Below, in pieces: positions 730 to 34,960 of a DNA stretch of 64,000 nt. The notes beneath the pieces were generated by a model, which had not been told where the DNA came from, searched no databases, and saw only the letters and a program-made list of their open reading frames with translations. Position numbers and translations under genes: made by a program. This DNA comes from Kiritimatiellia bacterium (lineage in GTDB: Bacteria; Verrucomicrobiota; Kiritimatiellia; CAIVKH01): the NCBI GenBank assembly GCA_023953695.1, contig JAMLJG010000003.1:106885-170884 (forward strand), written 5' to 3'. The number at the start of each line of letters is the position of its first letter. Position 1 is the first letter of the stretch.

Positions 730-787
730 AAAAGCGATACTATTCACAAACGTTGAGAGAGCGAAGTGTTTTAATAGCAATTTCTGC

Positions 788-2857: not shown

Positions 2858-3103
2858 TCGCGGGACGCCCCAAAAAAAAGAGGGCGCGACGCGCCAAGGA
2901 GGTTGGGGTGAGAGGCCCCAATTGGATAACGCATCAACGCCCTCAAAAATGAATAACGGAACTACGCTACGCTTTATTTTGAACAATTCAAATTAATTTG
3001 CGCTCTCAATGAAAAGAATCGTCATTTTAGGAAACGTTGACGCCAAATCCTTGAAGTCTTACGGTGCACCCCGATTCTGATATTCACTACAAAAGGCCCC
3101 TCT

Positions 3104-3436
3104 ATGATTCGACACTACCTCCTTGTTGCCGCATCGCTGCTCGCCCTGCTCGGGACCAGTGCCTGCTTTCGACACGACAACCGGGTGATCCATGTGAACG
3201 TCCCGCAAATGACCTCGCCCGAATGCTATACGCTTATCCAGAACAAGCTCAAAGAGGTTGAAGGCATCACGAGTTCCAACCCCAATTTCGAAGATCACAC
3301 CATCGCCGTGGCCTACAACGCGCTGAAACTCGGCATCAAGAATGTCGAGTTCACCATTGCATCGGCTGGCTTTGATGCCAATGACACACCGGCCTCTGCC
3401 GAAGCGCGCGCTAAACTTCCCGAAGGCTGCCGGTAA
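3104..3436 (+). CDS. Small lipoprotein with a degenerate heavy-metal-associated (HMA)-like fold
   Basis: Signal peptide with lipobox LLGTSAC. The motif VNVPQMTSPECYTLIQNKLKEVEGI resembles an HMA betaalphabeta pattern, but only a single Cys is present. Confidence 0.35.
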   Translation: MIRHYLLVAASLLALLGTSACFRHDNRVIHVNVPQMTSPECYTLIQNKLKEVEGITSSNPNFEDHTIAVAYNALKLGIKNVEFTIASAGFDANDTPASAEARAKLPEGCR

Positions 3437-3444
3437 TCAAAATC

Positions 3445-5837: not shown

Positions 5838-5842
5838 GAAGC

Positions 5843-6730
5843 ATGCAGGTTCTGCTCGACCAGTTTCTCGACTACATCACCCTTGAAAAAGGGCTCACCT
5901 CAAACACCCGTTCCGCCTATGCCTCGGATCTCGTGCGGTTCCTCGCCTTTATTCAGCGCGCGGGCGTGGCCTTGCTCAACAAACTAACGCGACGCCACAT
6001 TCTCGACTATCTGATGTGGGAAAAGGAGCAAGGACTTGCCGCGCCATCTCTTTCGCGCCGCCTCGTTGCGATTCGTGTCTTCCTTCGCTATTTGCAACAA
6101 GAAGGCATGCTCAGCGCCAATGTCACCGAGACCATGGATTCGCCCAAGCTCTGGAAGCTCCTGCCCGCCACGCTGACTACCGCCGAAGTCGAGCGGCTTC
6201 TGCAAACACCACGCCTCGATAAACCCCTCGGCCTCCGCAACCGCGCCCTACTTGAAACGCTCTACGGAACTGGCCTCCGCGTCTCAGAACTCGCCTCCCT
6301 GAAATTGGAAGATATCCAGTTCGATGCCGGCTATCTGCGCTGCCTCGGCAAGGGGCGAAAGGAGCGCGTTGTCCCACTCGGCGGAGCCGCAGCAACCTAT
6401 CTAAAGAAGTATTTGAATGAAGCGCGCGCTCAACTCGATCGCGTCAAGCAATCCGAGTTTGTTTTTCTTTCCACGCGCGGCCAAGCGCTGAGCCGCAAAA
6501 CCATCTGGCAACTCATCCGCCGATGCACGCGAGAAGCCGGAATCACGAAGAATGTGTCACCGCACACCCTTCGCCACTCCTTCGCCAGCCACCTGCTTGC
6601 GAACAATGCGCCGCTCCGCGTCATTCAGGAAATGCTCGGCCATGCCGACATCGCCACCACGCAAATCTACACCCATGTGGACGCCCCTCGTCTTCAGCAA
6701 ATCCACCGCCAATACCATCCCCGCGCATGA
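5843..6730 (+). CDS. Tyrosine site-specific recombinase, XerC/XerD family
   Basis: N-terminal SAM-like domain (TLEKGLTSNTRSAYASDL) and a C-terminal catalytic region (LRHSFASHLL...LGHADIATTQIYTHV). Confidence 0.85.
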   Translation: MQVLLDQFLDYITLEKGLTSNTRSAYASDLVRFLAFIQRAGVALLNKLTRRHILDYLMWEKEQGLAAPSLSRRLVAIRVFLRYLQQEGMLSANVTETMDSPKLWKLLPATLTTAEVERLLQTPRLDKPLGLRNRALLETLYGTGLRVSELASLKLEDIQFDAGYLRCLGKGRKERVVPLGGAAATYLKKYLNEARAQLDRVKQSEFVFLSTRGQALSRKTIWQLIRRCTREAGITKNVSPHTLRHSFASHLLANNAPLRVIQEMLGHADIATTQIYTHVDAPRLQQIHRQYHPRA

Positions 6731-7428
6731 TCCTCCGCAGTCCATATCGAGCGCTTGAAACAGCGCTGGGCTACAAATTCCGCCGCCGCCACTGGCTCGA
6801 ACAAGCCCTCACCCACCCCTCCTACTCCCACGAACACGCCGACGATATCCCCGACAACCAGCGCCTCGAGTTCCTGGGCGATGCCGCGCTCGGGCTCGTC
6901 ACCGCCGCCGTCCTCTACGAGGCGAACCCCGACCTCGCAGAAGGCGAGCTCACCAAAATGCGCAGCCTGCTGAGCAGCACCAAAGCTCTCGCACAAATGG
7001 CGCAGGAAGTCGGACTCGGTCCCTTCTTGCGGCTCGGTCACGGCGAAGAAATCAGCGGCGGCCGCGAACGCGCCTCGATCCTGGCCGATGCTCTCGAAGC
7101 CGTAATCGGAGCGGCCTATCAAGATGGCGCCCTGAAAGCGGTCTCTCGAATCTTCAAGAAGGTCTTCGTCCCTCACATTCCCACCGCCGAAGAAGGCGCA
7201 ACCATGGAGAATCCCAAGGGCCTCTTGCAAGAACATGCCCAGCGATCCGGCAATGGCATACCTCGTTACATTATTACAAAAGAAGAAGGCCCCGCCCATC
7301 AGAAGACCTTCACCATCGAAGTCTATATTAAAGACGAACTCTTAGGTGTCGGCACCGGAAGCACAAAGCGCGAGGCTCAAGTGCAAGCCGCCCTTCATGC
7401 GCTAAAGAAGTTTACAGAGCGCCAATAA
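6727..7428 (+). CDS. rnc: Ribonuclease III
   Basis: Starts at ATG 6727, overlapping the xer stop as ATGA. Has the ERLEFLGDA RNase III signature and a C-terminal dsRBD (STKREAQVQAALHALKKF). Confidence 0.9.
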   Translation: MILRSPYRALETALGYKFRRRHWLEQALTHPSYSHEHADDIPDNQRLEFLGDAALGLVTAAVLYEANPDLAEGELTKMRSLLSSTKALAQMAQEVGLGPFLRLGHGEEISGGRERASILADALEAVIGAAYQDGALKAVSRIFKKVFVPHIPTAEEGATMENPKGLLQEHAQRSGNGIPRYIITKEEGPAHQKTFTIEVYIKDELLGVGTGSTKREAQVQAALHALKKFTERQ

Positions 7429-7542
7429 TTATATTGGCAACATCCCCATCTTCCAGAAGGCCTGAAATCAAATCCTATTGCGCACCCGCAAGAGAACAGT
7501 AGACTCATCTCACTGTTCTTAAGAACATGGAAAAGGAGAACT

Positions 7543-7950
7543 ATGCCAAAGAATAAGTCAAATCTAACTCTCGCAGAACTACTCAACGCGCTGAATCGTC
7601 ATCGCAAGAAGCTTCCCGCCCTTCACAAAAAGGCGGACGCACTTCGCAAGAAACTGGCGGCAGTCGAAGCGGAAATCGCGGCCCTCGGCGGCATCCCTTC
7701 CTCCGGCGCGAAACGCCGCGCGCCAGCCGGATCGAGACGCCCACGCAACAAAACCAATCTGGGCGACGCCATCGTAGCGGTCCTCTCCAAAGACAAGCCG
7801 CTCTCCATTGCGGAGATCATTGCTGCCGTCAAAATGAATGGCTACTCGACCACCTCGGATAACTTCAGCACCATCGTCTACCAAGCCATCGCGCGCGAGA
7901 AGAGGCGCATCGCGAAGGCCAGCCGCGGACTTTATGTCCTCAAAAGCTGA
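7543..7950 (+). CDS. Hypothetical small basic protein, coiled-coil N-terminus plus putative winged-helix C-terminal domain (possible DNA-binding protein)
   Basis: Strong RBS GGAAAAGGAGAACT-ATG. Lys/Arg-rich sequence with a heptad-like N-terminus and an LGDAIVAVL...IAEIIAAV...YQAIARE segment. Confidence 0.5.
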   Translation: MPKNKSNLTLAELLNALNRHRKKLPALHKKADALRKKLAAVEAEIAALGGIPSSGAKRRAPAGSRRPRNKTNLGDAIVAVLSKDKPLSIAEIIAAVKMNGYSTTSDNFSTIVYQAIAREKRRIAKASRGLYVLKS

Positions 7951-8014
7951 AAAATTGATCGCGTTCTCTTGACTTACCGGAGGGGTTGGTTATCTTCGCC
8001 CCTGCCTTAAAGGT

Positions 8015-8089
8015 TCCGGCGTAGCTCAATGGTAGAGCAGGGCGCTGTTAACGCCAAGGTTGTAGGTTCGAGCCCTACCGCCGGAGCCA
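8015..8089 (+). tRNA. tRNA-Asn (anticodon GTT)
   Basis: Cloverleaf by hand. Acceptor TCCGGCG/CGCCGGA, D-arm GCTCAATGGTAGAGC, anticodon loop CTGTTAA, T-arm GTAGGTTCGAGCCCTAC and a 3' GCCA end. Confidence 0.85.
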
Positions 8090-8275
8090 TTTCCTTGGGC
8101 ATCCCCTTCCCCTTCTCGTCAATTGCCCCGCACTCCGCCCTGCATGCGGATGGCTCCATTCCGCCGGAGATGGGGAGAAAATCATGCCGGGCCGCATGAT
8201 CCTCTGCGCTAACCGATTGACCCGATCCACGCATCGCGCTACTCTCCGCCTCTTTCCGCTTAAAGGATAACCGAC

Positions 8276-10042
8276 ATGACGATGTTGATTTCAAAGTTCC
8301 ACAAGCTGATCCAGTCAAAGCTGTTGTGGGCCGCATTTTTGGTGGTGGTCATTTTCTCTTTCGTGATCTGGGGCACTGCGGTCCCCAACAGCGACAAGAA
8401 TGAATATGGAAACTCGCCCGGCATCCTCGATGGGAAGCCGGTTCCGTTCGAGGAGTTTCATCGCGCCTATTCCAGCACCCTTCTCTCGATAGAAATGTCT
8501 CTTGGCCGCGCCATCAATGTGACGCCCGAAATCGAGACGCAGCTTCGCGCCGCTGCCTGGCAGCGCGTTGCCACCCTGCGCTCGGCAGCGCGCATGGGCA
8601 TCGCGGCCAGCGATGACGAAGTGATCGGCGCGATCCAACATCACGAGGCCTTCCGCTATGAGGGCCAGTTCAACCGAATCGTCTATAAATCATTCGTCCA
8701 GAACTACCTCGGCCGCTACGGCTTTAGCGAACGCCACTTTGAAGAGCACGTGCGCGACGAAATTGTCATCCAGAAGGTACGCTCGATCGTGGAGCGCACT
8801 CAGCTCATCACACCCTTGGAGCTTCAGCGCGCGTTCAATCTCACTACCGACCGTTTCACAGCGGACTACGCGCTGCTCGAACCTGCCCTCGTAGAATCGT
8901 CCGTTAAGCTATCAGACGCGGATGTGCGCGCGTTTTTTGACAAGGACCCAGCGGCCTTCACTCTCCCAGAGCAGCTCCAGGTGGATTTTGTCCGAGTTGC
9001 CACGCAGCCCTTCCTTGCCAGCGCCGAAATCACCGATGACGAGGTGCAGGCCTATTACGATGAAAATCTGCGCGATTTCATTGATCACAGCTCCACCACC
9101 AACGCCGCTCAAGACGCGACCAATTTGCTCGAGAACCTCACGCGCTATCGCCCTCTTGAAGATGTAAAAGAGGAAATCTCCACGATTCTTCGCACAGGCA
9201 AGGCGCTCGAAAGCGCACAGGATGCGGCGATGAACTTGGTCGTCGCGCTGACGCCCGACCGCGACGGCAACGCCCCGACCTTCGAAGCCGCAGCGAAGGA
9301 GGCCAAGCTCGCTATTGAGTCCCTTCCCCCATTCTCGGCAACCAGTGACTTGCCCGGCATCCAGGAACCTGCCGCATTCAAGTTCACTGCGTTCGAACTC
9401 GGCGAAGGACCGGAATCCTATTTCAGCAATCCCGTTCGCGGAACGAACGAGGTCTATGTGATTGCGCTGCGCAAACGCATCGAATCGCGCGTTCCCGAGT
9501 TTGCCGAGGTGGAACCGGCCGTCAAAGAGGCAGCCCTCGCGCAAGCTCAGCACGACGCGCTCAAGGAAAAGGCGGAGCAGATCAAGAGCGAGGCCGAGAA
9601 AGCGCTGGGCGAGAATATCTCCTTCGCCGACACCCTCGCCTTCTATGGCCTCAAAGTGAAGACCACGGAACCCTTCTCTGCCACAACCGGCATGCTGGAC
9701 ACCAACGCTCCTTCACGCGCGATCTTCGCCGCCGTCTCCACCCTCAACGCCAACGAAGTGGCCGACCCGCTTCTGCTGGAAGACGGATATCTGCTTGTTC
9801 ACCTCAAGAACCGCGAGCCGGCAGAGTCCACCACCCTCGCCTCCATCCGGCCGCAACTGCTCGAAACCATTCGCCGCCAATCCGGGCGCCTCAGTTTCGA
9901 TAGCTGGCAGAGCGACCAATTGAAGCAGGCCCACTTCAAAGATCTGCGCCCAGCCACCAGCAGCGAGGACTACGACGAAGTCGAAGAAGAGAGCGGCGAG
10001 ACCCAGGACGACGCACCCGTCGAAAATCCAAGCGCCAGCTAA
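8276..10042 (+). CDS. Periplasmic folding chaperone, PpiD-like (N-terminal membrane anchor, SurA-N-like domain)
   Basis: An N-terminal TM helix (LLWAAFLVVVIFSFVIWG) followed by a large periplasmic domain with the PpiD/SurA-type organisation. Confidence 0.55.
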   Translation: MTMLISKFHKLIQSKLLWAAFLVVVIFSFVIWGTAVPNSDKNEYGNSPGILDGKPVPFEEFHRAYSSTLLSIEMSLGRAINVTPEIETQLRAAAWQRVATLRSAARMGIAASDDEVIGAIQHHEAFRYEGQFNRIVYKSFVQNYLGRYGFSERHFEEHVRDEIVIQKVRSIVERTQLITPLELQRAFNLTTDRFTADYALLEPALVESSVKLSDADVRAFFDKDPAAFTLPEQLQVDFVRVATQPFLASAEITDDEVQAYYDENLRDFIDHSSTTNAAQDATNLLENLTRYRPLEDVKEEISTILRTGKALESAQDAAMNLVVALTPDRDGNAPTFEAAAKEAKLAIESLPPFSATSDLPGIQEPAAFKFTAFELGEGPESYFSNPVRGTNEVYVIALRKRIESRVPEFAEVEPAVKEAALAQAQHDALKEKAEQIKSEAEKALGENISFADTLAFYGLKVKTTEPFSATTGMLDTNAPSRAIFAAVSTLNANEVADPLLLEDGYLLVHLKNREPAESTTLASIRPQLLETIRRQSGRLSFDSWQSDQLKQAHFKDLRPATSSEDYDEVEEESGETQDDAPVENPSAS

Positions 10043-10067
10043 TTTTTGCGACTCTTGCCCGCCTTTT

Positions 10068-10106
10068 CAGCGCGCCCACCCCGGTTGGCGCGCTGAATTG
10101 TTTAAT
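10068..10106 (+). terminator. Candidate rho-independent terminator after the ppiD-like gene
   Basis: Nine-bp GC-rich stem CAGCGCGCC/GGCGCGCTG with a 10-nt loop, followed by the T-rich tract AATTGTTTAATCTT. Confidence 0.45.
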
Positions 10107-10107
10107 C

Positions 10108-10154
10108 TTCCAATCCTTGGAAGCCCCAACCCACTCGTTTTCCAATCCTTGGAA
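10108..10154. promoter_or_regulatory. Two copies of the perfect palindrome TTCCAATCCTTGGAA (10108-10122 and 10140-10154), 32 bp centre-to-centre, upstream of the BMC operon
   Basis: Read directly from the sequence. The same dyad (TTCCAATCGTTGGAA) recurs twice with identical spacing at 19524-19570. Confidence 0.5.
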
Positions 10155-10383
10155 GTTGCCGCTGGCGAATCGTCCGATCGCACGGCGCAGCCTCTCAGTT
10201 CTGCGCCCATTGGCGGACCGGAGGGAGAAATGCCGACTTCGCGACTGAAACCGCCCCATTCTCAAAGCGCAAAAACAGGCTGGAATAGACAATTTTCACC
10301 GCAATGCGGTTCTCTTTAAGGAAAATAGTTGCAACGCGGCAATGCACCGTGCAGACTGATTGCGGATTTGTGCGCAACTCAGA

Positions 10384-11640
10384 ATGAAGCATCCTTTGAA
10401 AATAGCGATCGGCTCCGACCACGGCGGATTCGAACTCAAACAGCAACTTATTCCTTATCTCACGAGCCTTGGCCACGCCGTCACGGACGTGGGAACCAAC
10501 AGCAAGGACGCCGTTGATTATCCCCGTTTTGCATACGCCGTGGCGTCCAGCGTGTCGAGCGGCAGAGCCGATGTAGGAATTGTGATTGATGGCGCGGGGA
10601 TTGGATCGGCCATGACGGCCAACAAGGTTCCCGGCGTTCTAGCTGCCGCCTGCTACAACGAAGCGCTGGCCAGGAACTCGCGCGAGCACAACAACGCCAA
10701 CGTCTTGACTTTGGGCAGCGGTCAAATTGACCTTGCCGCTGCGAAACAGATTGCTTACATTTTCTTAACGACCGAGTGCACGGCGGACCGCCACTTGGCG
10801 CGCGTTAAGCTGATAAAGGAAGTAGAAGGCCGATCTATGTCTGGAAATGATTTGTCGCCGGAAGATGTGCAACGGGTAGCAGAGCGAGTGAAGCAGCTCT
10901 TGGGAGGGAAAAGCGGCTCCAGCGCCGCCATAGCGCGCCCCCTTTCGGCTGAACAAGTGGCAAAAATGATTGACCACACCCTGTTGAAGGCCGAAGCGAC
11001 GCCTGCCGATGTGGAAAAGCTCTGTGCGGAGGCCAGGAAACACGGATTTTGGTCGGTCTGCGTCAACTCCGCCTATGTCAAACAGGCCAAGGCGCTGCTC
11101 CGCGACTCCCGCACCAAGGTTTGCGCCGTTGTGGGCTTCCCTCTCGGCGCCATGGAGCCGCAGATCAAATCCCTCGAAACACGCAAGGCGCTGCGCGACG
11201 GCGCGAACGAGATTGACATGGTCATCAACATCGGCGCGCTCAAAGCGCGGGATGATGCCACGGTGCTGCGCGATATTCGCGGCGTAGTGGAAAACTGCAA
11301 GGACAGCCGCGCGATTTGCAAAGTGATTTTGGAGACCTCCCTCCTGAACGACGAAGAAAAGACCCGCGCCTGCCAGTTGAGCATGAAGGCGGGCGCCGAT
11401 TTTGTGAAGACCTCGACGGGATTTTCGACGGGCGGCGCCACGGCGGAAGACATTGCGCTGATGGCGCGCACGGTTGCTTCCCGCAAGTTGGGCGTGAAGG
11501 CTTCTGGGGGCGTTCGGACATACGCGGATATTGTGAAGATGGTCAATGCGGGCGCCACGCGCGTCGGGTGTTCGAATAGTGTGAAAATCATGGAAGAGAT
11601 CAGCACCGGCGTCGCACAGTCCGGTGGCAAGGGATATTGA
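10384..11640 (+). CDS. Fusion protein: ribose-5-phosphate isomerase B (RpiB/LacAB family) joined to deoxyribose-5-phosphate aldolase (DeoC)
   Basis: The N-terminal half matches RpiB ([19 protein letters not shown]...). The C-terminal half matches DeoC ([11 protein letters not shown]...VCVNSAYV...[11 protein letters not shown]...VKTSTGF...[10 protein letters not shown]). The track start at 10360 is TTG; the ATG at 10384 fits the RpiB N-terminus. Confidence 0.85.
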
Positions 11641-11669
11641 ACAGTTCGGGTTAACTGAAGGAGAAGGTC

Positions 11670-12305
11670 ATGGCGGAACTACGGTGCTATGCGTTTATTG
11701 ATAGCTTGCAGCCACAATTTGCCTCGTTTTTGGGAACGGTGGCACAGGGGTTTCTCCCCACAACTCACCAGGCGGCGCTTTTTGTTGAAATCGCGCCCGG
11801 TATGGAGATCAACCGCGTAACGGATGTGGCGCTGAAGGCCACCAATGTGACGCCGGGCATGATGATCGTCGAGCGCTTGTACGGCATGCTCGAGATCCAC
11901 TCGCACTCGCAAGCGGACGTCCGTCAGGCGGGCCAGGCGATTCTCGACGCGCTTGAACTCAAAGAGGATGATCGCATTAAGCCCAAACTGCTGACGAGTC
12001 AGGTGATCCGAAACGTGTCGGACTATCACACGCAGCTCGTCAACCGCATGCGCCATGGCAATATGTTGCTGCCGGGCCACTCGCTCTATGTGATGGAGTG
12101 TGCGCCTGCGGGCTATGCCGCGATTGCCGCCAATGAGGCGGAAAAGGCGGCCAACATCAACATTCTCGAAGTTCGAGCCGTCGGCAGCTTCGGGCGCATT
12201 TATCTCGGTGGCGAAGAGCGCGACGTTGATGTCGGGTATCGCGCAGCCGAAAAGGCCTTGGAGGTCATTTCGGGTCGCGAGGAAAAATCGGGCCGAGGCG
12301 GTTAA
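11670..12305 (+). CDS. BMC shell protein, tandem BMC-domain type (BMC-T), divergent
   Basis: Two BMC-domain-like halves: VTDVALKATNVTPGMMIVERLYGMLEIHSHSQADVRQAGQA and AAIAANEAEKAANINILEVRAVGSFGRIYLGGEERDVDVGYRAAEKA. The RBS is GAAGGAGAAGG. Confidence 0.7.
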   Translation: MAELRCYAFIDSLQPQFASFLGTVAQGFLPTTHQAALFVEIAPGMEINRVTDVALKATNVTPGMMIVERLYGMLEIHSHSQADVRQAGQAILDALELKEDDRIKPKLLTSQVIRNVSDYHTQLVNRMRHGNMLLPGHSLYVMECAPAGYAAIAANEAEKAANINILEVRAVGSFGRIYLGGEERDVDVGYRAAEKALEVISGREEKSGRGG

Positions 12306-12347
12306 TCAACAACAACTCGTTAGCGAACAGAAAAGGGAGATACGCAC

Positions 12348-12647
12348 ATGGCAGAAGCACTAGGCATGATTGAGACGCGGTCATTTCCGGCCGTGGTGGA
12401 AGCGGCGGATGCGGCGGTAAAGGCCGCCAAGGTCGAGCTGGTTTCGTTCGAAAAGACCGGCGGCGGCTACGTCTCCGTTATTATTCGCGGTGATGTCGCA
12501 GCGGTAAAAGCGGCTTGTGACGCAGCGCAAGTTGCCGGCGGTCGCGTCGGTGAAGTTGTGGCTGTCCACGTCATTGCCCGCCCCCACAGCAATGTGGATG
12601 CGGTCTTGCCGTTGGGTCGCCAGGGCGAATCGAAAGCGAAGAAATAA
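12348..12647 (+). CDS. BMC shell hexamer protein (BMC-H, PduA/CcmK/EutM-like)
   Basis: [29 protein letters not shown]...[23 protein letters not shown] is the canonical Pfam00936-type sequence. The RBS is AAGGGAG. Confidence 0.92.
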
Positions 12648-12663
12648 GGCAATTGCGCGATCC

Positions 12664-12688
12664 AATTGCCAGTCGCGCACTGGCAATT
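12664..12688 (+). other. Perfect 10-bp inverted repeat hairpin (AATTGCCAGT-cgcgc-ACTGGCAATT) in the BMC-H/BMC-P intergenic space
   Basis: Read directly. It lies 17 nt after the BMC-H stop codon and 24 nt before the BMC-P start. Confidence 0.6.
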
Positions 12689-12711
12689 TCATCTAGCAAT
12701 TAGCAGATTTC

Positions 12712-13026
12712 ATGCAGCTCGCCCGCATAGTTGGATCGGTCGTCGCCACACGAAAAGAGCCCACGCTGAATGGGCTCCGATTGATGCTGGTTCGACCCTT
12801 GGACGACGCGGGCCGCGAGACGGGATCTGTGCTTGTCGCCGCCGATGCGGTTGGAGCCGGTGTGGAGGAAGTTGTCCTCATCGCCTCCGGCAGCTCGGCG
12901 CGGCAGACGCAGCAGACTGACAAGCGGCCGGTGGACGCCGTGATCATGGCCATCGTGGATTCCTGGGACGTGAACGGCGAAGAGAAATATCGAAAAAGTA
13001 AAGAAGTGAAGGTCGCGGAAGAATAG
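12712..13026 (+). CDS. BMC vertex pentamer protein (BMC-P, EutN/CcmL/PduN family), copy 1
   Basis: [30 protein letters not shown]...[11 protein letters not shown] is a typical EutN/PduN N-terminus. Confidence 0.85.
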
Positions 13027-13114
13027 TGATGTCGAATTGCACGCGATGCACGCGAATCAGCGTGCGCTCGTGTTGAACGATCATCCCCCGCGGCCTTCGA
13101 GTGGAGGCTAGTAC

Positions 13115-14557
13115 ATGGCACGTCTCACGGATGCCGATATTGACGCGATCGCGCGCAGAATTGTCGCGGATTTGGATCAGCGCCCTCTCGAGAGCGTCCC
13201 CGCTCCCGCCGCTGTTGCATCGGCGGACCGCGAGTTGGGCATCTTCCCCACGGTGGATGAAGCCGTCAAAGCGGCGCGCGAGGCACAGCCTGTTTTTGTG
13301 GCGCTTCCGCTCAAGAAGCGAGCGCAGATCATTGCCGCGATTCGATCGGTCATGCTGGAGAACGCGGCGATCCTCGCGAAGGCCGCTCACGAGGAGACCG
13401 GGCTGGGTCGCTTCGAAGACAAGATCACAAAGAATATTCTCGTCACCGAGAAGACGCCCGGCATTGAACACCTGACTCCGGAAGCCATCACGGGTGATCA
13501 CGGGTTGACGCTCATTGAACCCGCCCCCTTTGGCGTCATTGGCGCGATTACGCCCACCACAAACCCGACATCAACGATCATTTGCAACACGATTGGAATG
13601 ATTGCCGCAGGCAACACAGTTGTCTTCAACGTACATCCGGGCGCAAAGAATTGCTCCATGCAGACCGTGGCCTTGATCAACAAGACTATTGTTGCCAGTG
13701 GCGGGCCGCGGAACGTGGTCACATGTATTTCCAACCCCACCATCGAAAGCGCGGGGGCCTTGATGCACCACGCTCATATTCGCCTCGTGGTGGTCACCGG
13801 TGGCGGTGGCGTCGTGAAGGCGGCGATGAAGAGCGGGAAGCGTGCCATTTGTGCAGGCCCCGGCAACCCGCCCGTCGTGGTGGATGAAACCGCCGACATC
13901 GCCAAGGCGGGTCGCGATATCGTGCTCGGCGCCTCGACAGACAACAACATTATTTGCGCTGATGAAAAGCAGGTCTTCGTCGTGGATAAAGTCGCGGATG
14001 ATCTGCTGAAGTCCATGCAGCAAAACAATGCGGTGCTGGTGGATCGCAGCAAGCTGGCGGCTTTGGAAAAGGTCATCTTCACCGAGATGCACGGGCCGCG
14101 GCAGGAGGCGCACATCAATCGCGACCTGATCGGAAAGAATGCCGAGGTGATCCTGAGCAAGATCGGGATCAATGTGCCGAGTTCCTGTCGGTTGGGAATC
14201 GTCGAAGTGGATGAAAACCATCCCCTGCTATGGACGGAGCAAATGATGCCCATTCTCCCCGTCTGCCGCGTCTCGAGCTGCGATTATGCAATTGATCTCG
14301 CGCTCAAGACCGAAGGTGGCAATCGGCACACAGCGGTAATGCACTCCAAGAACCTTGATAAACTCCATCGCATGGCGAAGGAGTCGAACTGCAGTATTTT
14401 TGTAAAGAACGGGCGCTCGCAAGCGGGCTTGGGCTTGGATGGTGAAGGCTATGTCTCCTTCACAATCGCCAGTCCTACCGGTGAGGGGCTGACAGGCCCG
14501 CGCACATTTTCACGCTGGCGGCGATGCGTGCTCGTTGATCACTTTAGGATCACGTGA
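13115..14557 (+). CDS. CoA-acylating aldehyde dehydrogenase (PduP/EutE-like BMC signature enzyme)
   Basis: FGVIGAITPTTNPTSTIICNTIGMIAAGN...ICAGPGNPPVVVD matches the catalytic-Cys region of acylating AldDH. The N-terminal segment MARLTDADIDAIARRIVADL is an amphipathic helix followed by a Pro/Ala linker, which is encapsulation-peptide-like. Confidence 0.9.
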   Translation: MARLTDADIDAIARRIVADLDQRPLESVPAPAAVASADRELGIFPTVDEAVKAAREAQPVFVALPLKKRAQIIAAIRSVMLENAAILAKAAHEETGLGRFEDKITKNILVTEKTPGIEHLTPEAITGDHGLTLIEPAPFGVIGAITPTTNPTSTIICNTIGMIAAGNTVVFNVHPGAKNCSMQTVALINKTIVASGGPRNVVTCISNPTIESAGALMHHAHIRLVVVTGGGGVVKAAMKSGKRAICAGPGNPPVVVDETADIAKAGRDIVLGASTDNNIICADEKQVFVVDKVADDLLKSMQQNNAVLVDRSKLAALEKVIFTEMHGPRQEAHINRDLIGKNAEVILSKIGINVPSSCRLGIVEVDENHPLLWTEQMMPILPVCRVSSCDYAIDLALKTEGGNRHTAVMHSKNLDKLHRMAKESNCSIFVKNGRSQAGLGLDGEGYVSFTIASPTGEGLTGPRTFSRWRRCVLVDHFRIT

Positions 14558-15168
14558 TGAAGAAATACCCGGCCATGGCCGTGGTTGAATTTGGGGAAAT
14601 CGGGAAGGGAATGTTCGCCACGGATAAGATGTTGAAGAAAGCGCCCATCGCTTTCATCCGTTGCGGGACGATCAGTCGCGGCCGCTATCTCACGGCCATC
14701 GGCGGCAGCACGGCGTCCGTTGGAGAGTCGTTTGATGAAGGTCTCTTTTGGGGTGGAGATGCAGTGCTGGACTCGGTCCTCCTCGCTGACGTGCACCCGC
14801 AAGTTCACGATGCAATTCTCGGGCAACATCGCCCGCAAGGGCGCGGTGCGCTGGCAATCGTAGAAACGCAAACTGTCGCGTGCAATGTGCGCGCCGCTGA
14901 GTTGGCGCTGAAAGGGACGCCGGTCAATCTCATGGAACTGCGATTGGCCGATGCCGGCTTGTCCGGGAAGGGCCTCAGCATCTATGAAGGTGAATTGTAC
15001 GACATCGAAGCCGCGATGGACATTGTCAGCGGGTTCTTGGAGGCGGCGGGGAAGGAGTTGAATTATCAAATCATCTCCTCGCCTCACGAAGCATTGGACA
15101 CGCGGATCACCTCGCACAGTCTTTTCGGTACGGCTCGCATGATCGAACTGGAAGGAGAATCCGGCTAA
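14557..15168 (+). CDS. BMC shell protein, tandem-domain BMC-T, PduT-like
   Basis: Aligns by eye along its full length with PduT (…GKGMFATDKMLKKAPIAFIR-C-GTISRGRYLTAIGG… / …LDSVLLADVHPQVHDAI… / …ALAIVETQTVACNVRAAELALKGTPVNL…). A Cys lies near the PduT Fe-S ligand position. The start ATG 14557 overlaps the AldDH stop as TGATG. Confidence 0.85.
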   Translation: MKKYPAMAVVEFGEIGKGMFATDKMLKKAPIAFIRCGTISRGRYLTAIGGSTASVGESFDEGLFWGGDAVLDSVLLADVHPQVHDAILGQHRPQGRGALAIVETQTVACNVRAAELALKGTPVNLMELRLADAGLSGKGLSIYEGELYDIEAAMDIVSGFLEAAGKELNYQIISSPHEALDTRITSHSLFGTARMIELEGESG

Positions 15169-15443
15169 TGCTACTCGGTCGCGTCACAGGCACGGTGGTC
15201 GCTACGATTGTGTACGAAGGCATGAGCGGTGTCCCCCTGCTCCTCGTTCAGCCACTCGACAAAACTGGGCAGCCCAAAGGCAAGGTCCTGGTTGCGGCTG
15301 ACGCCACGCGCATGGCAGGTGTGGGCGAGCTGATCTACTACGAAGGCGGTCGGGAAGCCGCGATGGCGCTCGATCCTTGGTTTGTTCCCGTGGATCACGC
15401 CATCATCGGAATCGTGGATAATTTGAACACTCAGGAATCGTAA
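15168..15443 (+). CDS. BMC vertex pentamer protein (BMC-P), copy 2
   Basis: MLLGRVTGTVVATIVYEGMSGVPLLLVQPL...VLVAADATRMAGVGE. TAATG overlap with the upstream gene. Confidence 0.85.
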   Translation: MLLGRVTGTVVATIVYEGMSGVPLLLVQPLDKTGQPKGKVLVAADATRMAGVGELIYYEGGREAAMALDPWFVPVDHAIIGIVDNLNTQES

Positions 15444-15445
15444 GC

Positions 15446-15727
15446 ATGTTCACCGGACGCGTCATCGGCCATATAGATTCGACCATCAACCATCCGTGGT
15501 ATGACGCGAAGAAGCTGCTCGTCGTCGAAAAAACAGATGCATCTGGAAAAGCAGCCTCCGACTACGTGATTGCAGTGGACACGGTTGGCGCAGGCGTAGG
15601 CGAGCCCGTGCTGGTCCTCGATGAAGGAAATGGCGCACGCCAAATTGTTGCCTCAAGTGACGCGCCCGTTCGCTCCGTAATCGTCGGGATCATAGACGAA
15701 ATTCATTGCCCGAATTCGGGTTCCTGA
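15446..15727 (+). CDS. BMC vertex pentamer protein (BMC-P), copy 3
   Basis: MFTGRVIGHIDSTINHPWYDAKKLLVVEKTD...VIAVDTVGAGVGE. Confidence 0.85.
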   Translation: MFTGRVIGHIDSTINHPWYDAKKLLVVEKTDASGKAASDYVIAVDTVGAGVGEPVLVLDEGNGARQIVASSDAPVRSVIVGIIDEIHCPNSGS

Positions 15728-15740
15728 CTAGACTCGCTTT

Positions 15741-16916
15741 ATGCGTGTATTCCTTATCGTCCTTGATTCCGTCGGGATAGGACACGCGCCAGATGCCGCT
15801 GATTACGGCGACGAAGGTGCGGCCACCCTACCCCACATCGCAGAGGCCGTCGGTGGTTTGCACCTGCCGACTTTTCAGAAACTGGGACTGGGCAATATCC
15901 CGCCCGTAACGCCGCGCCCGTTTCCCATTGATGGCGTTGCTCCCGCCGAAAAACCCTTGGCAAGCTATGGCGCCATGCGCGAGATGTCACAGGGCAAAGA
16001 CACGGTCACCGGACACTGGGAAATAGCGGGCTTGTTGTTGCAGCCGGGGTTTCACTTGTTCCCTCCGGGTCCGCCGTCATTTCCGCCCGAGGTGGTTGCT
16101 GCATTTGAGAAGGAAACCGGTCGCAAGATATTGGGTAACAAGGCCGCCAGCGGCGTTCCGATCATGGAGGAACTCGGCGAGCAGTCTTCGCGCGAGGGCA
16201 AGTGGATCGTCTACACGAGCGCGGACTCCGTCTTTCAGATCGCGGCCAACATTGATTTGATTCCTCTGGAGGAACTCTATCGCGCGTGCGAAGTGGCGCG
16301 AAGGCTGTGCGATCCGCTTCGAGTGGGCCGAGTCATTGCGCGACCCTTCCGAGGATCGGCCGGCGCCTATCAGCGCACAGAAGATCGCCGCGACTACGCA
16401 TTTCAACCGGATGAGCCGACAATTCTCGAGCGCCTCCATTCATCGGGCGTTCCCGTGTATGCCGTCGGCAAGATCGAGGACATCTTCGCGCATCGCGGAA
16501 TTACGAAAACCGATCACACAGGCAATAACCACACTTCGCAAAAAGCGGTCGAACGCTTCGCAGCCGAGATGAAGCGGGGCTTCCTGTTCGCGAACTTCAT
16601 TGATTTCGACATGCTCTACGGTCACCGGCGCGACCCCAAGGGCTATGCAGAGTCTTTGGTTCAAACCGATCAGTGGCTGGCCTCATTTTTGCCAACGCTG
16701 AAGTCGAGCGATACGCTCATCATTACCGCCGATCACGGCAACGATCCCACTTACAAGGGAACGGATCATACCCGCGAGGTGGTCCCCCTGCTGGTTTATC
16801 AACCCGGACAAGTGGCACAGAATCTGGGGTTGCGAGAGGGTTACTACGACATCGCACAATCGGTCGCCTCGCAATTCGGAATAGATTCACTCCCGCGAGG
16901 TCAATCTTTTCTCTAA
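15741..16916 (+). CDS. deoB: Phosphopentomutase
   Basis: Collinear with E. coli DeoB: VLDSVGIGHAPDAADYGDEGAATLPHIAE...TGHWEIAGL...YTSADSVFQIAA...GRVIARPF...ITADHGNDPT..GTDHTRE. Confidence 0.9.
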   Translation: MRVFLIVLDSVGIGHAPDAADYGDEGAATLPHIAEAVGGLHLPTFQKLGLGNIPPVTPRPFPIDGVAPAEKPLASYGAMREMSQGKDTVTGHWEIAGLLLQPGFHLFPPGPPSFPPEVVAAFEKETGRKILGNKAASGVPIMEELGEQSSREGKWIVYTSADSVFQIAANIDLIPLEELYRACEVARRLCDPLRVGRVIARPFRGSAGAYQRTEDRRDYAFQPDEPTILERLHSSGVPVYAVGKIEDIFAHRGITKTDHTGNNHTSQKAVERFAAEMKRGFLFANFIDFDMLYGHRRDPKGYAESLVQTDQWLASFLPTLKSSDTLIITADHGNDPTYKGTDHTREVVPLLVYQPGQVAQNLGLREGYYDIAQSVASQFGIDSLPRGQSFL

Positions 16917-16940
16917 ACGCTAATAGAAAGAGGTGTCCAG

Positions 16941-18263
16941 ATGCTTCCTCAATGGATAATCGAAAAGAAACGCGATGGGCAAACGCTTACGGAAGAGGAG
17001 ATTCGCTTCTTCATTGACGCCTACGCGAAAGAAAAGTTGCCCGATTATCAGATGGCGGCTATGGCCATGGCGATCTTCATTCGCGGCATGAATCCGAAGG
17101 AAATTGCGATTCTTACCGATGCCATGATGCGGTCGGGCGACCTGATCAATACCTCCTCCATCAAGAAACCCAAGGTGGACAAGCACTCGACCGGCGGGAT
17201 TGGCGACAAGGTCTCGCTCATTCTGGCCCCCCTTGTTGCCGCGTGCGGGTTGGCGGTGCCGATGATTTCCGGGCGCGGCCTCGGCATCACCGGCGGCACG
17301 TTGGACAAACTCGAGTCCATTCCCGGCTATCGCACCAATTTGAGTGATGCGGAGCTGATCCGGGTAATCAAGAAAATCGGCTGTTCCATCATCGGTCAGA
17401 CCAAACAACTCGCACCGGCCGATAAGAAACTCTACGCGCTCCGCGATGTCACGGGGACCGTCGCTTCTATTCCCCTGATCACGGCCAGCATCATGTGCAA
17501 GAAGCTCGCAGAAGGCCTTGATGGACTGCTTCTCGATGTGAAGTGCGGCAAGGGTGCGTTCATGCGCACGCAAAAAGATGCGCGCGCACTCGCGCTGACC
17601 ATGGTGCGTGTGGGAAATGCCATGGGCAAGCGCATGGCTGCGGTAATAACCGATATGAACCAAACATTGGGCAACACAGCGGGCAACGTCCTTGAAGTCG
17701 TGGAGTCCATTGAAACCCTGCAAAACCGGGGACCGAAGGATCTCACGGAACTCACCCTCGTTTCCGCTGAAGAAATGCTGATCCTGGGGCGAATCACCAA
17801 GTCGCGCGCCACCGCGCGCGCCATGGCAGAAAAGGCGCTCGCAGACGGATCGGCATTCAGGATATTCCGCAAAATGGTGGAGCTGCAAGGGGGCGACGTC
17901 CGCACCATTGACGATCCCTCGCGCTTGGCACAGGCCAAATTCAAAGTTCCGATGCCCGCTCCAGCATCCGGGTTTGTCTCGCTCGCGGATGCGGAATCCG
18001 TCGGCAAAGCTTGCGTAGTCTTGGGCGCTGGGCGCACACGCACGGACGAAGCAGTAGATCCTGCCGTAGGTATATCGCATATCCTGCACATCGGCGATGC
18101 CGTCACCAAAGGCGCTCCGCTCTTGGTGATTCATGCGAACGACAAGAAGCGATTGGCGGCTGCTCAAGAACTCTTGAAAGGCGCCTTCAAGATAGCGAAG
18201 TCCAAGCCGAAGACACCGAAGCTGATTTTGGAACGTATCAACGGCGAAACGATTGGGAAATAA
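16941..18263 (+). CDS. deoA: Thymidine/pyrimidine-nucleoside phosphorylase
   Basis: The KHSTGGIGDKVSL signature, with the N-terminal helical domain and alpha/beta domain typical of DeoA/Pdp. Confidence 0.9.
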   Translation: MLPQWIIEKKRDGQTLTEEEIRFFIDAYAKEKLPDYQMAAMAMAIFIRGMNPKEIAILTDAMMRSGDLINTSSIKKPKVDKHSTGGIGDKVSLILAPLVAACGLAVPMISGRGLGITGGTLDKLESIPGYRTNLSDAELIRVIKKIGCSIIGQTKQLAPADKKLYALRDVTGTVASIPLITASIMCKKLAEGLDGLLLDVKCGKGAFMRTQKDARALALTMVRVGNAMGKRMAAVITDMNQTLGNTAGNVLEVVESIETLQNRGPKDLTELTLVSAEEMLILGRITKSRATARAMAEKALADGSAFRIFRKMVELQGGDVRTIDDPSRLAQAKFKVPMPAPASGFVSLADAESVGKACVVLGAGRTRTDEAVDPAVGISHILHIGDAVTKGAPLLVIHANDKKRLAAAQELLKGAFKIAKSKPKTPKLILERINGETIGK

Positions 18264-18265
18264 TC

Positions 18266-19102
18266 ATGATAGACCGCACAATTCTCGACCAGGCGCTCTC
18301 CCACGTTCGCGGAAAGTGGCCCCATGCCCGCCCACGCCTTGGCATGATTCTCGGTTCCGGATGGAGCGAGGTCATTGGCTCTTTCAACGTCAAGGACGCG
18401 ATTTCCTACGAGGATATTCCGGGCCTGGGCAAGACCGGAGTCGTGGGTCACGCAGGTCGCCTCGTACTCGCGGAATCGGCTGGATTGGAGTTGCTCGTCT
18501 TTCAGGGGCGACGCCACTTCTACGAAGGCGTGGGTTGGACTCCCATTGCGCTCCCGATCTTTCTTCTTAAATCGCTCGGCGCCAAGACACTCCTCGTGAC
18601 CAATGCCGCAGGCGGGGTTAGGAAAGACCTCGTTCCGGGGACACTGATGATCATTTCCGATCACATCAACTTTCTCGGAGCCAACCCGCTGGTCGGCGCA
18701 CACGACAGTTTTTGGGGGCCGCGATTCCCGGATCAGAGCGAAGTGTACAACGCGTCGCTTCGCAAATTGATTGTCCAAGCAGGACAGAACGCGGGCGAGA
18801 CGCTTGCCGAAGGCGTCTATCTGGCGGACTCGGGGCCGACCTACGAATCGCCCGCTGAAATACGCGCGTTTGCCGCGCTTGGAGCTGACGCCGTTGGAAT
18901 GTCCACCGTTCCCGAAGCCCTGCTGGCCAATGCTGCGGGCTTGCGCGTGGCAGGACTCTCCTGCATCACGAATAGCGCGGCTGGCATTAGCGAGAATCCG
19001 CTCAGTCACGAGGAAGTGACCGAGACCACTCGTCTTGCAATGGAGCGCATGAAGAAGGTGCTTCTCAACTTTGTCGAGGAGGTGGCTCGTGAGCGCCGCT
19101 AA
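18266..19102 (+). CDS. Purine nucleoside phosphorylase (PNP/MTAP family, PunA-type)
   Basis: The start is the internal ATG 18266 (MIDRTILDQ...). Family motifs: GSGWSE, TNAAGG, GADAVGMSTVPE. Confidence 0.85.
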   Translation: MIDRTILDQALSHVRGKWPHARPRLGMILGSGWSEVIGSFNVKDAISYEDIPGLGKTGVVGHAGRLVLAESAGLELLVFQGRRHFYEGVGWTPIALPIFLLKSLGAKTLLVTNAAGGVRKDLVPGTLMIISDHINFLGANPLVGAHDSFWGPRFPDQSEVYNASLRKLIVQAGQNAGETLAEGVYLADSGPTYESPAEIRAFAALGADAVGMSTVPEALLANAAGLRVAGLSCITNSAAGISENPLSHEEVTETTRLAMERMKKVLLNFVEEVARERR

Positions 19103-19508
19103 ATCCGCTCTCCCGCGCAGTCAGGCGTTGAAACTTCTCCGCGCCGCCGCCCAGGTATCGCGCAACGCACACGCGCCCTACTCTGCGTTTCAGGTGGGTG
19201 CGGCCCTGTTGACGGATACGGGCGCAGTCATCTCGGGTTGCAATGTCGAGAATGCCTCATACGGACTCACCATTTGCGCCGAGCGCAACGCGATTTTTCA
19301 TGCGGTCGCTGTGAAGAAGCGAAAGTTCAAGGCGGTGGCCATCGTTGCGAGCGGAAAGCAAATGCCTTTCCCGTGCGGCGCCTGCCGTCAGGTCCTCGCC
19401 GAATTCGGATCGCCGGAGATGGTGGTCCTCGTCGCGCCGCGCGCAAAGTTGGCCGATTATATGGAGCTAACGCTCGGCGAACTCCTGCCCCATTCCTTCA
19501 AGTTTTGA
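19071..19508 (+). CDS. cdd: Cytidine deaminase
   Basis: CAERNAI...PCGACRQ zinc-ligand motifs. The start is either ATG 19071 (overlapping the PNP 3' end) or GTG 19089. Confidence 0.85.
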   Translation: MSRRWLVSAAKSALPRSQALKLLRAAAQVSRNAHAPYSAFQVGAALLTDTGAVISGCNVENASYGLTICAERNAIFHAVAVKKRKFKAVAIVASGKQMPFPCGACRQVLAEFGSPEMVVLVAPRAKLADYMELTLGELLPHSFKF

Positions 19509-19523
19509 TCCCGCGCAGGCAAC

Positions 19524-19570
19524 TTCCAATCGTTGGAAAGCCCTCGCGATAGAACTTCCAATCGTTGGAA
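19524..19570. promoter_or_regulatory. Two copies of the perfect palindrome TTCCAATCGTTGGAA (19524-19538 and 19556-19570), 32 bp apart, in the convergent gap between cdd and gspF
   Basis: Read directly. Same dyad arms and same 32-bp spacing as the pair at 10108-10154. Confidence 0.5.
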
Positions 19571-19571
19571 A

Positions 19572-20768
19572 TTAGCGGGCGAGTTGGTTGAGCGAGAGGA
19601 TGGGCTGCAGAATGGCGAGGGCCACGAGAAGCACTACGGCGCCGACTGCGACAATTAGAATGGGCTCGACGAGTCGAATAAAGCGCTGGAGAAGTGTCTC
19701 CCATTGTTCTTGGAACCGACGCGCCGCCTGATCGAGAAGCCCCGTCAAATCGCCACTCGCCTCGCCCGCTCGGTACCACGCGGGTAGCCGGGTTCCGATC
19801 CACGGACTCTCCGCCAAGACATCCGGAACAGAGCGCCCTTGGCGAACGGCTTCGCTGCCTTGCTGCATCTGGCTGGCGAGCCACTCGCTCCCACTCGCGC
19901 GTGCGGCGAGCGGCAAGGCTTCCACGAGTGCAATCCCGCCGCGCAGCAGCATGACAAGCGTGCGCACAAACCGAATGGTCACCACGAGGCAATAGCCGCG
20001 GCGAAAGAGAGGTATCCGATTGAAATGTCGCTCCCAATATGCGCGTCGGGTGGATCGCCTCAAACGAAACGCGACCCACACGCAAAAAAGGATCATGAAT
20101 GCAATCGCGAGGCTGGCTGGCAAACGCCCTGCCCCGCCGAACCAGATGAGCACTTTTGTGGTCGTGGGCAGTGCCACGCCCGATTCTGCAAAGAGTCCGG
20201 CCAATCGCGGCAAAATCGCAGTGACCATAATAACTGCAACGATAAAGGCCAGCGCGATGACCAATAGTGGATAGAGAAGCGCTGAGAGAATCCCTTCGCG
20301 AAGGCGCGTCTCTTCTTCCAAATAGCTCGCCATCTGATTGAACATTTCGCCCAGTTGCCCCGTGCGCTGACCGCCCTGCAGAAGCGCCACCTCGAATGGG
20401 CTGGTTTCTGGGGCGAGCTGTGGCAACGCTTCGGCAACGCTCTCACCCTCCCGAATTCGATCGCGCAGGCCGGCAAGGATTCCGTTGAGCTGCGAATCGG
20501 GGTGCGCCTCCAACAAGAGATCCAGAGCGGCTACGGCAGGGACTCCCGCGCGCAGCAACGCGCCGAGTTCGCGATAGAGCGCGGCTCTTCTTTCTGTTGA
20601 AAAGCGGCGGCGAACCAAGCTGCTCCGGTCCGATGCGGCGACAACGTCTTCGGCCAAAATGCCGCGCGCAGCAAGTTTCTCTCTCGCTTCTTTTGGATGA
20701 AGGGCCTCGACCATACCCCGGGCGCGCCCGCCCAATTTGTCAAACCCTCGATACGCAAAGGTCTTCAT
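19572..20768 (-). CDS. gspF: Type II secretion system inner-membrane platform protein GspF (PilC family)
   Basis: GspF/PilC-family repeats, 398 aa, with TM segments (LLYPLLVIALAFIVAVIMV). Confidence 0.85.
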   Translation of the reverse strand: MKTFAYRGFDKLGGRARGMVEALHPKEAREKLAARGILAEDVVAASDRSSLVRRRFSTERRAALYRELGALLRAGVPAVAALDLLLEAHPDSQLNGILAGLRDRIREGESVAEALPQLAPETSPFEVALLQGGQRTGQLGEMFNQMASYLEEETRLREGILSALLYPLLVIALAFIVAVIMVTAILPRLAGLFAESGVALPTTTKVLIWFGGAGRLPASLAIAFMILFCVWVAFRLRRSTRRAYWERHFNRIPLFRRGYCLVVTIRFVRTLVMLLRGGIALVEALPLAARASGSEWLASQMQQGSEAVRQGRSVPDVLAESPWIGTRLPAWYRAGEASGDLTGLLDQAARRFQEQWETLLQRFIRLVEPILIVAVGAVVLLVALAILQPILSLNQLAR

Positions 20769-34946: not shown

Positions 34947-34960
34947 CAAGTCGGTGATCG

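Follow-up and report, generated by a model that had tools for sequence, protein, structure and literature searches.

Twelve genes that occupy 9.1 kb of a 64-kb window (the whole 64,000-nt stretch analyzed here, from contig JAMLJG010000003.1 of an uncultured Kiritimatiellia bacterium) quite probably constitute one operon. The operon would encode a bacterial microcompartment (BMC) of the sugar phosphate utilizing (SPU) type, subtype SPU3, together with a cytosolic pathway that feeds it, with co-transcription judged from gene spacing and synteny. The encoded system is likely to be a metabolosome centered on deoxyribose-5-phosphate aldolase (DERA), equipped with a CoA-acylating aldehyde dehydrogenase (AldDH) and supplied with deoxyribose-5-phosphate (dR5P) by the cytidine deaminase Cdd, two nucleoside phosphorylases and the phosphopentomutase DeoB. 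The gene content, gene order, catalytic residues, helices resembling encapsulation peptides (EPs) and a linkage conserved between species were observed directly.

Families were assigned to the open reading frames (ORFs) by Pfam and NCBIfam profile searches at curated cut-offs. The coordinates, strand and family of each of the twelve co-directional genes named in the initial annotation were borne out:

10384-11640, + strand: RpiB-like/DERA fusion, 418 aa (PF02502 and PF01791; deoC equivalog model 269 bits, cut-off 117)
11670-12305, + strand: BMC-Tdp shell protein, CcmP-like, 211 aa, with an E68-R69 pore motif (CcmP model 318 bits; Pfam CsoS1D_N)
12348-12647, + strand: BMC-H hexamer shell protein, 99 aa (PF00936, 97 bits)
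12712-13026, + strand: BMC-P pentamer protein 1, 104 aa (PF03319, 108 bits)
13115-14557, + strand: CoA-acylating AldDH, 480 aa (PF00171; PRK15398, 652 bits)
14557-15168, + strand: BMC-Ts tandem-domain shell protein, 203 aa (PF00936, two BMC stretches)
15168-15443, + strand: BMC-P pentamer protein 2, 91 aa (PF03319, 73 bits)
15446-15727, + strand: BMC-P pentamer protein 3, 93 aa (PF03319, 84.5 bits)
15741-16916, + strand: phosphopentomutase DeoB, 391 aa (PRK05362, 501 bits, cut-off 256, residues 2-391)
16941-18263, + strand: NP-II pyrimidine-nucleoside/thymidine phosphorylase (deoA), 440 aa (three Pfam domains; NCBIfam 577 and 566 bits)
18266-19102, + strand: PNP-I purine nucleoside phosphorylase (PNP), trimeric-type, inosine/guanosine family, 278 aa (PRK08202, 312 bits, cut-off 218)
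19089-19508, + strand: Cdd, homotetramer-type cytidine deaminase (PRK05578, 145 bits, cut-off 74)

The 12 ORFs run from the ATG of the fusion gene at 10384 to the cdd stop at 19508, all on the + strand, and GC content over the region is unremarkable. Overlaps of 1 nt were found at the AldDH/BMC-Ts junction (TGATG) and the BMC-Ts/BMC-P2 junction (TAATG), and PNP and cdd overlap by 14 nt given GTG 19089 as the cdd start, which is ambiguous (TTG 19071, GTG 19089 or TTG 19128). The remaining intergenic gaps measure 2, 2, 13, 24, 29, 42, 64 and 88 nt, with the 13-nt gap lying between BMC-P3 and deoB, where the shell genes give way to the deo-type genes. The two TGATG/TAATG overlaps described initially are thus real, although 'almost no spacing' does not hold for junctions with gaps of up to 88 nt. 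The fusion protein is recorded as MCO6400383.1 ('Verrucomicrobia bacterium'), and its 90%-identity cluster also contains a protein from a Kiritimatiellae metagenome-assembled genome (MAG).

Conservation of the arrangement was assessed by scoring 170 related loci, drawn from species-representative genomes, metagenomes and exact-protein look-ups, with the twelve proteins of the window. An SPU core, defined as at least five shell matches plus AldDH with at least 4 kb beyond, was present at 42 loci, or 40 non-redundant loci when three copies of the window's own contig were counted as one. The complete 12-gene order recurred in four other species (L086, L087, L088 and L002, with fusion identities of 85, 77, 73 and 67%, respectively), and a fifth (L089, 70% fusion identity) displayed the same order with two inserted genes. 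The L089 insertion (16826-19627) encodes two FG-GAP/fibronectin-III repeat proteins of 430 and 444 aa between deoB and deoA. Carriers of deoB-deoA-PNP-cdd, referred to below as the feeder module, were confined to the window's Verrucomicrobiota/Kiritimatiellia-like clade (L086-L089, 85-70%) and a Lentisphaerae-labelled MAG (L002, 67%). In these carriers gene order is fixed and the core/feeder junction spans 3-93 nt over six species, while the outer flanks differ. Because the 12-gene order recurs in species with differing flanks, the adjacency within the operon is not due to chance. The feeder proteins of L086 are 84/81/80/77% identical to those of the window versus 85/89% for the core, and the corresponding values for L002 are 65/65/61/63% versus 67/69%.

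Two further loci connect nucleoside enzymes to BMC genes by other routes. A Cytophagia MAG (L077, 27-3715) encodes a PGM/PMM-family mutase, a BMC-P protein, a DERA with an N-terminal extension of ~70 aa and a pyrimidine nucleoside phosphorylase. The mutase is not homologous to DeoB and the contig is cut at its 5' end; judged by its genes, this locus is an independent in-operon link of nucleoside enzymes with BMC-P and DERA. At L090 (5844-9713), the phosphorolytic module is missing from an SPU3 core of 67% identity. Directly upstream of this core are genes for uracil phosphoribosyltransferase, amidohydrolase, inosine-uridine nucleoside hydrolase and another phosphoribosyltransferase, and by this gene content the locus is a different nucleoside link to the same SPU3 core. 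Three other SPU3 loci have downstream ORFs of ~877 aa, which are not homologous to one another. In the window (8276-10042, + strand) and at L086-L089, where the flanks otherwise differ, the operon is immediately preceded by a gene for a PpiD/SurA-like chaperone; this neighbor may reflect plain synteny or a functional tie.

The fusion protein consists of an RpiB-like domain (residues 1-152), an isolated amphipathic helix (159-174) and a DERA/DeoC domain (186-410). In an AlphaFold2 model (mean pLDDT 86.5), two confident domains are joined by a low-confidence linker that contains the lone helix. Residues of Escherichia coli DeoC were mapped onto the DERA domain by pairwise phmmer alignment, with the reference letters at positions 102, 167 and 201 checked. 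The catalytic D278, K342 and K372 (equivalent to E. coli D102, K167 and K201) are invariant across 134 fusion homologues. The RpiB-like domain keeps seven active-site or phosphate-binding residues (D9, H10, H99, N100, R133, H134 and R137), whereas the catalytic Cys66 is replaced by Asp (D69) in 134/134 homologues and Thr68 by an Ala (A71) that is likewise invariant. This domain scored below the rpiB equivalog cut-off (134.4 versus 138.65 bits) and passed subfamily models alone. The same Cys66-to-Asp exchange has been reported for all ribose-5-phosphate isomerase (RPI) homologues of SPU loci, and essentially no activity on ribose-5-phosphate was seen for the RPI of SPU6 (PMC11585597). With the catalytic Cys and Thr gone and the phosphate-binding residues kept, the domain is probably not a canonical isomerase and would most likely serve as a scaffold or a sugar-phosphate-binding partner of DERA. 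The pattern suggests selection for sugar phosphate binding without canonical isomerase chemistry. The name RpiB-DeoC fusion given initially therefore stands as to PF02502 and PF01791 in one protein with an intact DERA triad, but not as to an RpiB domain with its catalytic Cys and Thr.

AldDH is most similar in the PDB to the Rhodopseudomonas palustris aldehyde dehydrogenase 5JFL (456 bits). Its catalytic Cys lies in NNIICADEK and aligns with the position at which 5JFN has a nonstandard residue (X) instead of the 5JFL Cys. An N-terminal extension of ~38 aa comprises a helix, RLTDADIDAIARRIVADL, that is conserved in relatives, followed by a Pro/Ala-rich linker. The extension aligns with the N-terminal region of full-length 5JFL, and the shorter 4C3S and 5DBV align from query residue 39. 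It resembles an EP, so that AldDH carries both the catalytic Cys and the EP-like extension on which the initial metabolosome assignment depended. Helix 159-174 of the fusion is the most amphipathic 14-mer of that protein (hydrophobic moment 2.38 versus a mean of 0.83), is also conserved in relatives and fits the 'internal EP' of published SPU3 fusions, as judged from its position and composition. A shared EP motif in AldDH and the fusion, L[ST]xx[DE][IV]xx[IV]AxR[IV], scored 17 in a BLOSUM62 scan versus 19-26 by chance and was set aside as suggestive only.

All six shell ORFs passed the BMC and EutN profile hidden Markov models (HMMs), PF00936 in three genes and PF03319 in the other three, above gathering scores. 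PF00936 matched BMC-H as a single domain, BMC-Ts in two stretches and the CcmP-like protein in its C-terminal domain only. The latter, the first of the two BMC-T proteins, scored just under the equivalog cut-off of the CcmP model (318 versus 340 bits) and best matched the CcmP structures 5LSR and 4HT5 (262 bits); by these comparisons it is a CcmP-like, double-stacking BMC-Tdp. BMC-Ts had been described as PduT-like, and alignment to PduT structures confirmed the PduT fold. However, a Ser occupies the position of Cys38, the pore residue that ligates the 4Fe-4S cluster in PduT, a Cys neighboring this position is not conserved in homologues, and the PduT model returned 66.6 bits against an equivalog cut-off of 250.3. 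On this alignment 'PduT-like' is apt for the fold only.

The four feeder enzymes were aligned by HMMs nearly from end to end, leaving no EP-like extensions. DeoB, DeoA, PNP and Cdd probably stay outside the shell, a cytosolic placement that is proposed because they lack terminal extensions. For the NP-II phosphorylase the choice between thymidine and pyrimidine-nucleoside phosphorylase is ambiguous both by NCBIfam (577 versus 566 bits) and by PDB similarity, with pyrimidine nucleoside phosphorylases as the nearest entries (413 bits) and E. coli thymidine phosphorylase at 375 bits. A 5'-nucleotidase gene (Metallophos and 5_nucleotid_C domains; 47378-48979, - strand) is located 28 kb from the operon, adjoining clpX/clpP/tig; by its domains, the product could supply nucleosides and would fit the scavenging of external nucleotides.

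A pathway can be proposed from these families. In the cytosol, Cdd would deaminate (deoxy)cytidine, and the NP-II phosphorylase and PNP-I would release (deoxy)ribose-1-phosphate by phosphorolysis of pyrimidine and of inosine/guanosine (deoxy)nucleosides, respectively. DeoB would convert the 1-phosphate to the 5-phosphate and thereby supply dR5P. The sugar phosphate would then enter a shell built of one BMC-H, three BMC-P, BMC-Ts and the CcmP-like, gated BMC-Tdp, in which the DERA domain of the fusion would cleave it to glyceraldehyde-3-phosphate (G3P) together with acetaldehyde. Before it can escape, the acetaldehyde would be converted by the EP-bearing AldDH, with CoA and NAD+, to acetyl-CoA and NADH, after which acetyl-CoA would leave the shell and G3P would exit to glycolysis. 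Neither a phosphotransacylase (PTAC), an iron-type alcohol dehydrogenase (AlcDH) nor PduS was found when ORFs were scanned across the 64-kb window (PF06130, PF01515, PF00465 and PF01512-type models). Because none is encoded in the locus or window, acetyl-CoA/CoA and NAD(H) would have to be exchanged across the shell, presumably via the pore of the Tdp protein, in line with the published view of SPU3. We infer here that the genes are co-transcribed, that encapsulation takes place, that all enzymes have their assigned activities and that flux runs in the proposed direction. The reading of the initial annotation, nucleosides to dR5P to acetyl-CoA within a shell, is supported by the HMM assignments, the catalytic residues and the conserved linkage.

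BMC loci containing DeoC were named SPU in 2014, when deoxyribose-5-phosphate/DNA catabolism was proposed for them (Axen 2014, PMC4207490), and by 2021 the type had grown to seven subtypes, with over 280 loci from 26 phyla (Sutter 2021, PMC8217296). SPU has been reported among the most widespread BMC types. Published SPU3 loci encode AldDH with pfam02502 and pfam01791 proteins, fused in 12 loci with pfam02502 N-terminal (PMC8217296, Supplementary Data 2). Their AldDH bears an N-terminal EP and the fusion possibly an internal one; the shell genes comprise one standard BMC-H, three BMC-P, a Tdp of the CcmP-like clade and a Ts that lacks both a pore cysteine and a PduS partner; PTAC is missing, and the hosts include Verrucomicrobia and Lentisphaerae (PMC8217296). 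The present locus agrees item by item: it has the 02502-01791 fusion, the N-terminal AldDH EP, the EP-like sequence between the fused domains, one BMC-H, the BMC-P triplet, the CcmP-like BMC-Tdp, BMC-Ts without pore cysteine or PduS, no PTAC and a matching host phylum. On this match to the published description, rather than on the authors' type-specific HMMs (BMC Caller), it is assigned to SPU3. Unlike the published SPU3 loci, deoB, NP-II phosphorylase, PNP-I and cdd here follow directly in the operon.

The claim that no such locus had been characterized experimentally is outdated, as in vitro work on SPU6 showed that its DERA acts on dR5P and that DERA and RPI associate in a complex (Dwyer 2024, PMC11585597). 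The SPU6 system (Chloroflexi bacterium GWB2_54_36) shares with the window a DERA signature enzyme with the D/K/K residues and an RPI with Cys66 changed to Asp. Its DERA and RPI are separate proteins in a physical complex, whereas here they form one polypeptide. It also differs in an AldDH of another branch with a C-terminal EP, a different Tdp clade, a GntR/UTRA regulator in the locus and no reported nucleoside genes. In the Hodarchaeales, SPU-type compartments were described in a 2025 preprint with a route from nucleosides via deoxyribose-1-phosphate (dR1P) to dR5P (bioRxiv 2025.11.08.687404). The likeness lies in the DERA and AldDH core and in the proposed conversion of DNA to deoxynucleosides, dR1P and dR5P via nucleoside phosphorylase and phosphomutase; in contrast to the window, those feeder enzymes were inferred genome-wide and not in an operon, DERA is fused to a flavoprotein domain, and the system includes PTAC and MNdh.

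Classical deo operons (E. coli deoCABD and the Firmicutes loci L054 and L075) likewise combine DeoC, a pyrimidine nucleoside phosphorylase, a phosphopentomutase, a purine nucleoside phosphorylase and often cdd in the same pathway from nucleosides to G3P and acetaldehyde. Firmicutes clusters in our locus set were arranged as DeoA-DeoC-Cdd or DeoA-DeoB-PNP-DeoC. Here, however, six shell genes and the acylating AldDH stand between deoC and deoB, DeoC shares a polypeptide with an RpiB-like domain, and PNP-I is trimeric rather than of the hexameric DeoD type. The window operon can be described, by its gene order, as a deo operon with a shell and AldDH inserted after deoC. As in Eut and Pdu metabolosomes, a signature enzyme would make an aldehyde in a shell that also holds an EP-bearing, PduP/EutE-like CoA-acylating AldDH; unlike in those systems, the role of signature enzyme falls to an aldolase with a sugar phosphate as substrate, PTAC/AlcDH recycling is missing and the Tdp is carboxysome-like. 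The words 'nucleoside', 'phosphorylase' and 'mutase'/'phosphopentomutase' are absent from the main texts of the key SPU papers and from the text-form supplements of Sutter 2021 (Table S1 of Dwyer 2024 lies outside this scope), and a literature search found no paper discussing the feeder/SPU linkage.

Several observations weigh against a single operon that feeds nucleoside-derived dR5P into the compartment. A promoter/terminator scan of 9900-19800 gave counts no better than shuffled sequence and was uninformative, so that the single transcript is argued from spacing and synteny. Of the 40 non-redundant SPU loci whose flanks extend for at least 4 kb, 34 lack the feeder module; SPU function therefore does not require it, and a single ancestral event in one clade could account for its linkage. 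The likeness of the two EP-like helices was not significant in the unbiased BLOSUM scan. Of the nucleoside catabolic set called complete at first, Cdd, DeoA, PNP and DeoB are present, but neither adenosine deaminase nor a nucleoside transporter is encoded in the operon or anywhere in the 64-kb window. PTAC, AlcDH and PduS, which would recycle cofactors, were not found in the 64-kb window. The DERA equilibrium favors condensation, and the direction of flux is an assumption. The organism is an uncultured MAG known from its genes.

These points bear on what else the locus might be. One alternative holds that two independent modules lie side by side, an SPU3 organelle that draws on another substrate supply and a deoB-deoA-PNP-cdd cluster for ordinary salvage, placed together by one historical rearrangement. 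Most SPU3-like loci lack feeder genes within 10 kb, including Acidobacteriota loci at 64-68% identity and with identical core order, in whose flanks Pfam scans found nothing nucleoside-related; every carrier locus could stem from one event in one PVC clade; and all four feeder enzymes also take part in base salvage in many bacteria. Against this, the junction of 3-93 nt has been retained in six species with diverged flanks, feeder identities track core identities, and the DERA substrate is exactly the product of DeoB. Classical deo operons (L054 and L075) join the same enzymes to DeoC, and in the unrelated L077, BMC-P and an N-extended DERA are independently joined by a mutase and a nucleoside phosphorylase. 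We therefore consider a mere juxtaposition improbable. An operon in which the four feeder enzymes supply the DERA compartment has also to be compared with a compartment whose substrate is a sugar phosphate other than dR5P, first handled by the RpiB-like domain, with a promiscuous DERA and with deoxynucleosides not the main input. Dwyer et al. saw no obvious role of RPI in dR5P chemistry and considered other rare sugar phosphates possible, yet in their hands the SPU6 DERA was active on dR5P while the SPU6 RPI was essentially inactive on ribose-5-phosphate (PMC11585597). The universal retention of the RpiB-like domain, its intact phosphate-binding His/Arg residues and its invariant Asp at the catalytic-base position speak for this alternative. 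The DERA domain, however, is a deoC equivalog with all catalytic residues, and the in-operon DeoB and phosphorylases indicate a nucleoside-derived pentose-1-phosphate, which makes another main substrate decidedly improbable.

The pathway might also run in the anabolic direction, with AldDH reducing acetyl-CoA to acetaldehyde within the shell, DERA condensing the aldehyde with G3P to dR5P, and DeoB and the phosphorylases completing deoxynucleosides. All steps other than Cdd are reversible and the DERA equilibrium lies on the condensation side; a shell would increase the local acetaldehyde concentration, and an aldehyde-condensing role has reportedly been proposed for Atribacteria BMCs. Cdd, however, is a catabolic or salvage deaminase with no part in such a synthesis, the 5'-nucleotidase elsewhere in the window fits scavenging, and nothing indicates that the organism is without ribonucleotide reductase. 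Synthesis in this direction thus appears very improbable, and the catabolic route through DERA and AldDH is retained.

A bolder extension of the catabolic route, which we regard as speculative and unlikely, is that the SPU3 organelle of this clade has become the center of a self-contained 'deo operon with an organelle'. The RpiB-like domain would then be no relic, but would process or bind the ribose-5-phosphate that DeoB and the phosphorylases make from ribonucleosides, or gate the delivery of pentose phosphates to DERA. If true, the compartment would be a general nucleoside-pentose processor, for RNA as well as DNA, and the enigmatic SPU RPI would gain a role.

The edges of the proposed transcription unit are probably marked by two pairs of palindromes:

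10108-10154, no strand: palindrome pair (C)TTCCAATCCTTGGAA(G), 32 bp apart, 66 nt past the stop of the PpiD/SurA-like gene; distance to the fusion ATG, 230-276 nt
19524-19570, no strand: second palindrome pair TTCCAATCGTTGGAA, 32 bp apart, in the 63-nt gap from the cdd stop to the convergent gspF stop

The palindrome, TTCCAATC[C/G]TTGGAA, occurs four times in the window versus 0.21 times expected, as two pairs that bracket the operon, with none inside. L087 and L002 also carry the motif between genes, at other 3' positions. A function as an operator was considered and rejected, since the pairs sit at the 3' ends of transcription units and recur at unrelated intergenic sites in L087 and L002. 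From its distribution the element is probably a lineage-specific repetitive extragenic palindromic (REP)-like or terminator-like element that marks the upstream and downstream edges of the unit. ORF family scans of the flanks found no DeoR- or CytR-type regulator, and at the Rfam gathering threshold only the tRNA-Asn and no riboswitch was detected.

Upstream of the operon lie genes for RNase III, an unknown 135-aa protein, tRNA-Asn and the PpiD/SurA-like protein; downstream are convergent type II secretion system genes including gspF. Over positions 1-20000 of the window, GC skew lay at about -0.11 to -0.17 up to 10 kb and at +0.03 to +0.07 over the operon, although genes on both sides are on the + strand. 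A secretin gene and a TSP3-repeat protein gene (59185-63459, - strand) are followed on the matching contig L085 by genes for an Amuc_1100-like protein and PilM, a pilus-like cluster that fits a Verrucomicrobiota origin. At 31388-35012 (- strand), a ClpC-like AAA+ protein adjoins an ATP:guanido phosphotransferase, a pairing of the kind formed with McsB-like protein arginine kinase. Exact-sequence look-ups of three mid-window proteins returned no match; this region was covered by the Pfam scans.

The SPU3 type and the hypothesis of dR5P/DNA degradation are already known, and the mechanism proposed here is the accepted hypothesis for a catalogued BMC type. To our knowledge, the native substrate of an SPU compartment has never been shown in vivo. 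What is added here is an operon architecture specific to one clade, by which the published substrate hypothesis becomes more explicit; it is no new system, and the current picture of BMC biology is unchanged by it. With 12 genes in 9.1 kb, the operon is a compact construct that lends itself to heterologous expression for tests of substrate, encapsulation and the retention of acetaldehyde. By joining shell, DERA and AldDH to the enzymes that make dR5P, the operon provides independent genomic-context support for dR5P/DNA scavenging, an idea otherwise based on the presence of DERA and one in vitro assay, and the second, independent linkage in the Cytophagia MAG adds to that support.

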